Source: Klebsiella phage RCIP0020. From it: a stretch of DNA of 64,000 nucleotides. Each line of letters starts with the position of its first letter. Position 1 is the stretch's first letter. Positions 17,618 to 17,893 of this stretch are shown here, piece by piece. The notes under the pieces were generated by a model. It saw nothing but the letters and a program-made list of their open reading frames with translations, ran no database searches and was not told the DNA's origin. The position numbers and the translations under genes were made by a program. The stretch lies in sequence record OR532814.1. One strand, written 5' to 3'.

Positions 17618-17893
17618 ATGGCAACTGAAAAATGGACTACGGTTCATCCTATTCCGTGGAGAAATACCAGTTTTACATATCTTCCATACTGGCTATACGA
17701 TATTATCGTTGATGCTTTTGAGAAAGGCGACGACTGGCGCGATTATGCGGAAGAAAAATATAAATTAGAGTTTGATACTCTGAAAGAGGCGTTTGAAGAT
17801 TATGGTGATATTCATGTAATCGAATCTCGTAATGGTAAACTGGTTAGTCTGTTGTCATTGACTCCTGCTCCTGAACCAGATCCTGACCAATAA
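17618..17893 (+). CDS. Stand-alone paralog of the Hoc C-terminal capsid-binding domain (91 aa) with Pro/Asp-rich tail
   Basis: KWTTVHPIPWRNTSFTYLPYW...ESRNGKLV aligns by eye with Hoc C-terminus KWTVHPIPWRDTSFTPIGYW...DSRNGYIH; own SD aagagg. Confidence 0.7.
   Translation: MATEKWTTVHPIPWRNTSFTYLPYWLYDIIVDAFEKGDDWRDYAEEKYKLEFDTLKEAFEDYGDIHVIESRNGKLVSLLSLTPAPEPDPDQ

Follow-up and report, generated by a model that had tools for sequence, protein, structure and literature searches.

The 64,000-nucleotide (nt) stretch of DNA analyzed in this study (hereafter, the window), from Klebsiella phage RCIP0020 (sequence record OR532814.1), contained a 91-amino-acid (aa) open reading frame (ORF) at 17618..17893 on the + strand, immediately downstream of hoc, where the original prediction, made from the sequence alone, had placed it. 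BLASTP, PHROG profiles, phmmer, and AlphaFold2 identified its product as an N-terminally anchored Hoc-like protein with no display domain, referred to here as the hoc2 stub. The ORF encodes a Hoc capsid-binding domain that stands alone, with no immunoglobulin (Ig)-like domains. We consider it reasonably probable that it derives by reduction from a second Hoc-like gene, an "inverted Hoc" of which the anchor and a linker remnant are left, and that its product docks at hexamer centers as an Ig-less competitor of Hoc. The source was a Slopekvirus (KP15-like Klebsiella/Enterobacter myovirus, Straboviridae), and region 16400-18500, which matched 163 phage records, was 99.8% identical to Klebsiella phages Roth22, RCIP0002, and others.

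The resemblance of the ORF to the C-terminus of the adjacent Hoc, at first read by eye, was significant on formal alignment, which had been set as the test of the prediction: BLASTP aligned ORF residues 4-73 with Hoc residues 276-345, about 70 residues, at 49% identity and 68% positives (E=3e-20). The ORF also matched three PHROG profiles for "Hoc-like head decoration" (phrog_14282, 2.5e-62; phrog_11091, 1.2e-40; phrog_1149, 8.9e-23), and phmmer against PDB sequences matched it to T4 Hoc residues 293-365 (E=4.9e-10). The AlphaFold2 model, from a 72-sequence alignment, had a mean predicted local distance difference test (pLDDT) score of 90.2, with order predicted for a core of about residues 10-81 and disorder for the tail, in which block pLDDT dropped to 74 and then 45. 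Its predicted strands (residues 10-12, 17-22, 66-69, and 75-77) and helices (24-35 and 46-62) gave the Hoc anchor fold, a four-stranded sheet base with two helices, as a predicted rather than a solved structure. The sole significant Foldseek match of the model in the PDB was 8t1x_X (E=3e-6, probability 1.00, template modeling (TM) score 0.70; next match, E=0.43), which is, by the title of the PDB entry, the C-terminal domain of T4 Hoc on the vertex-proximal gp23* capsomer. The expected absence of Ig-like domains was confirmed by Pfam, which found no Ig domain in the ORF, and only 10 residues lie outside the anchor; in the Pfam copy used, the ORF matched no Hoc capsid-binding-domain family.

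The translation (MATEKWTTVHPIPWRNTSF...IESRNGKLVSLLSLTPAPEPDPDQ) was divided into an anchor domain, residues 1-81 (17618..17860, +; phmmer alignment to T4 Hoc, model block pLDDT 93-96), and a tail, residues 82-91 (17861..17890, +; codon alignment), an acidic (X-Pro)4 sequence reading TPAPEPDPDQ, as had been described. The product was predicted to be a 10.8-kDa protein with an isoelectric point of 4.39 and a net charge of about -10, and its predicted tryptic peptides include WTTVHPIPWR and NTSFTYLPYWLYDIIVDAFEK. The KP15 protein KP15_196, annotated as "Hoc large outer capsid protein", was 100% identical to it. The upstream gene, hoc (16546..17607, +), encoded a canonical 353-aa Hoc with Ig-like domains followed by a C-terminal capsid-binding domain, as recognized by Pfam (Ig_3, 9.3e-20; I-set; Ig_2) and by PHROG (phrog_1149, 1.7e-64), and is named hoc in many records. 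The anchor of this Hoc spans residues 276-353 (17371..17604, +), as placed by BLASTP against the ORF and by alignment with T4 Hoc. The ORF had a Shine-Dalgarno sequence of its own, as predicted, the hexamer AAGAGG at 17606..17611 (+), read off the sequence; it shares bases with the TAA stop codon of hoc (17605-17607) and stands 6 nt before the ATG. The same hexamer is the Shine-Dalgarno sequence of hoc (16532-16537), and the spacing to the ATG was 6-8 nt in both genes. The remark that no such split arrangement was known from T4 agreed with the single hoc found at the T4 locus.

The family to which the ORF belongs was indicated by where the PHROG matches fell, covering profile positions 1-90 of 246, 1-84 of 167, and 1-71 of 502; as the matches sit at profile starts, the anchor in those families is N-terminal and is followed by another module. 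With these N-anchored proteins the ORF shared an N-terminal anchor beginning MAT(E)KWTTVHPIPWRNTSF, as seen in the profiles, the alignment, and the identity matrix, and a genomic position after inh and its neighbors and before the nucleotidase gene, as in the regions of KP15, Lemur_ER36, SemperBestia, and JC221. The C-terminal Big_2-like or GDSL module that follows a Pro-rich linker in the family was missing, and a linker remnant was present. Identity of the ORF anchor to the N-terminal anchors was 81% for Lemur_ER36, 75% for IMG/VR contig L010, 69-74% for Pseudotevenvirus and JC221, and 56% for COW86c. The survey of relatives that had been proposed was run, and long orthologues were found at the same locus elsewhere. 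Klebsiella phage Lemur_ER36 (164 aa) and contig L010 (165 aa) carried the N-anchored protein downstream of a canonical Hoc of 469 and 445 aa, respectively. No canonical Hoc was found upstream in Pseudotevenvirus phages SemperBestia, Lw1, and RB16 (167-172 aa), where the N-anchored protein was the sole Hoc-like gene found at the locus, or in Yersinia phage JC221 (166 aa) and Citrobacter phage CfP1 (246 aa). The extra segment of the long orthologues consisted of one or two Big_2-like domains, and the Pfam Big_2 match to the long form scored 21.8 bits (E=1.8e-4), below the 22.8-bit cut-off. A 184-aa cluster representative (P0004) had an N-terminal anchor followed by a Hoc-type Ig domain instead of a Big_2-like one. 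Judged by its sequence, the ORF is a reduced variant, as it lacks the display module of both the canonical and the inverted Hoc families.

The DNA record of this reduction was found at the end of the gene. Homology between the window and Lemur_ER36 ran from the end of hoc through ORF codon 83, broke, and resumed at the nucleotidase ATG. The tail lined up with the linker between the domains of the long forms (PMBT1-type TPAPEPVTDQ, followed by the stop, vs. Pseudotevenvirus TPAEPVVTITPK), and the ATAAGG preceding the nucleotidase gene matched the stop region CATAAGG of the long forms, the compared 3' sides being ...CAATAAAATAAGGCAAACA|ATG in the window, ...GCATAAGGAAAAAT|ATG in Lemur_ER36, and ...CCATAAGGAAATAAA|ATG in JC221. 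ATAAGG therefore probably marks the 3' side of a deletion, and the alignment places within it the stop codon that the long form probably had ancestrally, at 17896..17898 (+), now out of the ORF frame. Taken together, the homology break, the linker match, and the ancestral stop region indicated that the whole display domain, about 75-80 codons, was lost, and the ORF now terminates two codons past the deletion junction.

The tail was the only variable part of the ORF gene within Slopekvirus, with codons 88-89 reading DP, VT, or EP. Its variants were TPAPEPVTDQ (PMBT1, KMI10, and PhiK2046), TPAPEPEPDQ (PTP25), TPAPEPDPDQ (window and KP15), and TPAPAPEPDPDQ in P0002, a 93-aa metagenomic variant with an extra AP unit that stands for a 34-member cluster. 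Relative to the linker-like VT form, all changes added Pro or acidic residues (window 17861-17890, loci L018-L021, and P0002), and the tail of the stub behaves like an evolving X-Pro repeat.

Other anchors were sought exhaustively with phmmer among 1.84 billion cluster representatives, and 75 matches at E≤0.001 were obtained. The anchor was C-terminal in about 60 of them, in proteins of 166-1182 aa, and N-terminal in seven (P0004-P0008, 165-246 aa; P0010, 121 aa; and P0009, a 49-aa fragment). A few had no complete Ig domain, including P0010 and P0056. P0010 was 96% identical to MM5_035 of Morganella phage vB_Mm5 (locus L023, 2501-2866), the only Hoc-like gene of that phage, which lies between inh and a nucleotidase-region gene and encodes an anchor and a 40-residue acidic Pro-rich tail (NPVIPEPEEPGETDPDPEVPVTPEKEDPDTETKE) without an Ig domain. 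P0056 (169 aa) was an Ig-less anchor between charged low-complexity segments; in T4-like metagenomic contigs, which came from several samples, its gene directly follows that of a 419-aa canonical Hoc. These two cases indicated that Ig-less anchors with acidic Pro-rich tails arose more than once, once in a tandem layout. The gene order of the P0056 contigs (L027/L028) was uvsW, inh, a 211-aa protein (L027, 2046-2681), the 419-aa Hoc (2692-3951), and P0056 (4001-4510); the 211-aa protein had a Lys-rich N-terminus and an Inh/Hoc-anchor-like C-terminus, so that four anchor-type domains stand in a row. A further candidate for an anchor-only gene, P0023 (78 aa), was rejected as a one-base frameshift split, by artefact or mutation, of a canonical Hoc on contigs of about 0.5 kb. 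Two IMG/VR scans added 15 loci and no architecture beyond the known types.

A different fusion of the N-terminal anchor, with a Lipase_GDSL_2 hydrolase (about 510 aa in total), was observed in Karamvirus (CC31 and PG7), Erwinia phage COW86c, and Edwardsiella phage PEi20 (L005 3001-4527, L030 3001-4536, and L039-L044). These anchor-GDSL genes adjoin gene 39.1, in the early region near gene 39, and not hoc; since the Karamvirus gene stands apart from hoc, the tandem layout is not universal.

In T4, the Hoc C-terminal domain docks off-center on the expanded gp23* hexamer and touches all six subunits, with 155 Hoc per capsid, through Tyr293, His295, Arg300, Trp309/310, Asp313, and the ESRNG loop of Hoc and through Gly326-Arg344 of gp23 (PMC10385173). 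Most of these contacts were kept in the ORF, namely H10 (His295), R15 (Arg300), W25 (Trp310), D28 (Asp313), and E69-S-R-N-G73 (355-359), with Y24/W25 aligned to Trp309/310; Tyr293 was replaced by Thr in both the ORF and the neighboring Hoc, and Tyr360 by Lys in the ORF. The partner surface was conserved as well. The major capsid protein of the window (8151-9719) matched T4 gp23 at E=1.4e-242, and its Hoc docking region, G328-R346 (GSKAGAFDFQDPIDVRGAR; 9132..9188, +; phmmer alignment to T4 gp23), was identical to T4 gp23 Gly326-Arg344 at 17 of 19 positions, keeping the Hoc-contacting Asp336 and Arg344.

Expression together with hoc was suggested by the promoter arrangement. A search of the window for the T4-type late promoter motif gave nine matches, one of them directly upstream of hoc, where TATAAATA (16513..16520, +), a consensus match of presumed promoter function, precedes the hoc ATG by 26 nt; none of the matches fell between hoc and the ORF. 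The ORF would be transcribed late with hoc from this motif, would be translated from its AAGAGG hexamer much as hoc is, and its product would bind the center of the major-capsid-protein hexamers after capsid expansion. As one T4 anchor touches all six subunits, implying one Hoc per hexamer, the stub should compete with full-length Hoc. The outcome would be a mosaic capsid, in which some capsomers carry an Ig fiber and others only a 10.8-kDa acidic cap, and the stub would lower Ig-fiber density while keeping the hexamer center covered and negatively charged. The role of competitor or cap, or of minimal decoration, that had been proposed for the product is plausible.

The distribution of the short form was determined with a 401-nt probe holding the end of hoc, the 91-aa ORF, and the start of the nucleotidase gene. 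The probe was fully covered in 110 records, 92 at ≥99% and 18 at 95-99% identity, and another 87 records from other genera matched its anchor part only. The short form was present in 110 of 111 Slopekvirus records, with Lemur_ER36 alone carrying the long allele. In the most divergent carriers, the anchor differed by three synonymous differences and one conservative change (D38E). Between the window and Lemur_ER36 anchors, the ratio of nonsynonymous to synonymous substitution rates (dN/dS) was 0.17, at a dS of 0.77, and relative-rate counts gave 1-4 unique amino-acid changes on the stub lineage vs. 6-8 on the domain-bearing relatives. The lack of rate acceleration on the stub lineage indicated that loss of the display domain did not free the anchor from constraint.

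Several observations weigh against a maintained, competing decoration protein. The short-form carriers were at least 98.5% identical in the region, so that fixation and conservation after the deletion count for little, and the post-deletion test rests on four substitutions (binomial p≈0.04); the dN/dS signal is mostly older than the deletion. Disrupted copies were found in RB43 (61 aa), in P0009 (49 aa, frameshifted), and in CPRSA (88 aa, a fragmented annotation). In T4, hoc is dispensable, and this dispensability, together with the disrupted copies, indicates that loss is evidently tolerated. The ORF and the neighboring Hoc also differed at contact positions, with Y21 in place of P (Trp306), I68 in place of Q (Gln354), and K74 in place of Y (Tyr360), and the relative affinity of the stub for the hexamer could be low. 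The literature, including the KP15/KP27, phiEap-3, and KlebPhaCol papers, yielded no virion proteomics, cryo-electron microscopy, or genetics for any Slopekvirus and no mention of the stub; the PMBT63 Hoc paper concerned a 468-aa Hoc, 46% identical to T4 Hoc, and not the 91-aa product.

Of the disrupted copies, the RB43 hoc-locus ORF (L015, 3001-3186) was cut to 61 aa (MATEKW...YID), and P0009, a Slopekvirus-type variant, was frameshifted after residue 33; both may represent either occasional gene inactivation or sequencing errors. The length of hoc itself varied within the genus, from 177 aa in KP15 and several IMG/VR contigs to 353 aa here and 469 aa in Lemur_ER36 (compared at window 16546-17607, L001 2457-2990, and L002 1581-2990). 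The KP15 and window proteins had common N- and C-termini, which fits internal gain or loss of Ig repeats, and 52 of the 163 matching records covered at least 80% of a probe containing the 353-aa form.

On these grounds, the ORF could be a neutral relic, a recently truncated and irrelevant hoc2 remnant that is still open, and perhaps still translated and able to bind, only by being too young to decay. Near-identity of the 110 carriers, which makes conservation uninformative, a tail that is unconstrained or variable, domain loss in both Hoc genes of the genus, the existence of truncated and frameshifted copies, and the dispensability of hoc would all be expected of such a remnant. In contrast, the stub lineage had not accumulated extra amino-acid changes, the anchor showed a three-to-one ratio of synonymous to conservative changes within the genus, the Shine-Dalgarno sequence was intact, and all binding residues were conserved. 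Ig-less anchors also recurred in independent lineages, in one case as the only Hoc of a phage and in another behind hoc in tandem, and the tail moved toward X-Pro and acidic units, unlike random decay, although the numbers are small. We regard a relic as a serious possibility that is on the unlikely side, and a reduced inverted Hoc that can still dock as the better account of the locus.

A stronger version of that account would be that Ig-less anchors with acidic X-Pro tails form a recurrent, selected class of minimal decoration rather than debris, with the stub setting Ig-fiber density and producing a mosaic virion surface. Adherence to mucus and host surfaces and immunogenicity would then be traded against diffusion through Klebsiella capsule or biofilm, and the shift of the tail from VT to DP or EP, along with the AP insertion, could potentially reflect selection for a charged, rigid bristle. 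We offer this proposal tentatively and consider it rather doubtful.

The original prediction had also raised a recent duplication, with the ORF as a paralogous copy of the C-terminal domain of the neighboring Hoc, and this part did not hold. The two anchors lie side by side and share 49% identity in local alignment, which would fit a tandem duplication. However, over the domain, the ORF was no closer to the anchor of its neighbor (41%) than to the C-terminal anchors of other phages, which were 43% identical in the Hoc of Lemur_ER36 and L010, about 48% in Krischvirus (RB49-type) Hoc, and 35% in T4. It was 69-81% identical to the N-anchored proteins that occupy this position in other genera, and its Pro-rich tail aligned with the interdomain linker of those proteins. 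The contrast between identities to N-terminal and C-terminal anchors indicated that the two anchor types split long before the Slopekvirus radiation. A recent tandem duplication was rejected from the identity matrix and is very improbable.

Least credible of all was that the ORF forms the 5' part of a +1 frameshift fusion with the downstream 5'-nucleotidase, a capsid-anchored enzyme like the anchor-GDSL proteins, which was considered and found unsupported: the frame of the nucleotidase has no stop between 17862 and its ATG at 17907, and N-anchored Hoc-enzyme fusions exist in CC31, PG7, COW86c, and PEi20, but chance alone would leave 15 codons open about half the time, neither a slippery motif nor a stimulatory structure was found, the nucleotidase has a start of its own and stands as a separate gene behind long and short forms alike, and tail insertion-deletion variants (93 and 88 aa) shift the register with no sign of constraint.

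The genes around hoc and the ORF were, in order, uvsW (13356-14855, -), inh (14926-15504, +), a hypothetical gene (15597-15908, +), and a gene for an HAD_SAK_2/zinc-finger protein (15948-16517, +). The 189-aa product of the last of these, just upstream of hoc, matched HAD_SAK_2, the "Swiss Army Knife" RNA repair HAD domain (2.7e-29), and ended in a CxxC zinc-finger segment that resembled the DnaJ central domain weakly, below threshold. Downstream of the ORF, a 5'-3' deoxyribonucleotidase-like gene (17907..18425, +; phrog_2643, 2e-50) is the last gene of the presumed hoc-ORF91 transcription unit, and its position after the locus was kept in all relatives compared. It was followed by a strong hairpin that would close the unit, with a 13-pair stem resembling a bidirectional intrinsic terminator (18427..18457, both strands), where KP15 has terminators annotated on both strands, and by a second nucleotidase paralogue (18457-18921, -; phrog_2643, 5.7e-57), so that the two paralogues converge on a single terminator hairpin. 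Beyond these lay a zeta-toxin-like gene (18971-19810, -; Zeta_toxin, 2.8e-07; phrog_5268), encoding a 279-aa zeta-toxin/P-loop kinase whose position was kept in Slopekvirus, Pseudotevenvirus, and Morganella phage vB_Mm5.

The C-terminal segment of Inh, about 65 residues (NTGFYTCPYWIYDWMKQNPDWYKHPDGCPHYSARQTLKSLAWYMHRDGMVTVRETRNSQF; about 15298-15495, +), appeared homologous to the Hoc capsid-binding domain. Comparison of the Hoc-anchor alignment by hhalign gave a probability of 88.8% (E=2.5e-6) with Inh and 94.2% (E=1.2e-7, 62 columns) with an Inh alignment. With this homology, three neighboring genes (inh, hoc, and ORF91) would have the fold in common. Inh was not mentioned in the two T4 head/Hoc papers checked.

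Our finding is a modest refinement, as the gene is already annotated as Hoc-like, phages with two Hoc proteins have been reported, and the stub could be a relic that the phage tolerates. The ORF carries a Hoc or Hoc-like label in more than 100 GenBank records, from the "Hoc large outer capsid protein" of the 2010 KP15 record to the "Hoc-like head decoration protein" of PHROG-based annotations; the PSKm2DI record names the gene pair hoc_1 and hoc_2, and that of CC31 mentions a GDSL enzyme with a Hoc part fused at its N-terminus. A study by Fokine et al. 2023 (PMC10385173) described phages with two Hoc-like proteins (Muldoon and PG7) and the N-terminal position of the anchor in PG7; neither competition nor a form consisting of the anchor alone was described there. 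If the stub binds, Slopekviruses would have a built-in competitor that dilutes Hoc fibers. These phages are often isolated as Klebsiella therapy candidates, and fiber density bears on mucus adherence, aggregation, and antibody recognition. The stub also defines a natural minimal docking module of about 80 residues with a free C-terminus, which could be leveraged for T4-type display engineering. More broadly, the locus presents the Hoc anchor as a mobile module that can be C-terminal or N-terminal, domain-less, Ig-bearing, or enzyme-bearing, and that probably also occurs in Inh.

Among known systems, the C-terminal domain of T4 Hoc (PDB 8T1X, 8T9R, and 5VF3 chain Z) resembled the ORF in sequence, predicted fold, contact residues, acidity, and its place at the inh-hoc locus, and the cognate gp23 docking loop was conserved here. 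T4 Hoc differs in having 376 aa rather than 91 aa and in bearing Ig-like domains, the string of which is absent from the ORF, whereas the ORF has an N-terminal anchor and a canonical Hoc immediately upstream. The N-anchored proteins of Pseudotevenvirus (RB43, RB16, Lw1, CfP1, and leB) and Lemur_ER36, classed in PHROG 14282/11091, were similar in anchor, position, and the TPA..P start of the linker, but run on into Big_2-like Ig domains (164-246 aa), whereas the ORF ends within the linker. In Karamvirus (CC31 gp007 and the 511-aa protein of PG7), COW86c, and PEi20, a similar N-terminal Hoc anchor (55-59% identity) is likewise followed by a Pro-rich linker; those proteins differ in their large C-terminal GDSL/SGNH hydrolase (Lipase_GDSL_2, 4.1e-18) and in their locus. 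In architecture, the ORF was like vB_Mm5 MM5_035 and P0056, which are also anchors without an Ig domain, with an acidic Pro-rich C-terminal tail, at the hoc locus, and P0056 likewise stands in tandem after Hoc. At 39-45% identity to the ORF, these represent independent lineages, with tails of about 30-40 residues; P0056 is further distinguished by a charged N-terminal extension of about 60 residues, and the vB_Mm5 protein by being the sole Hoc-like gene product of its phage.

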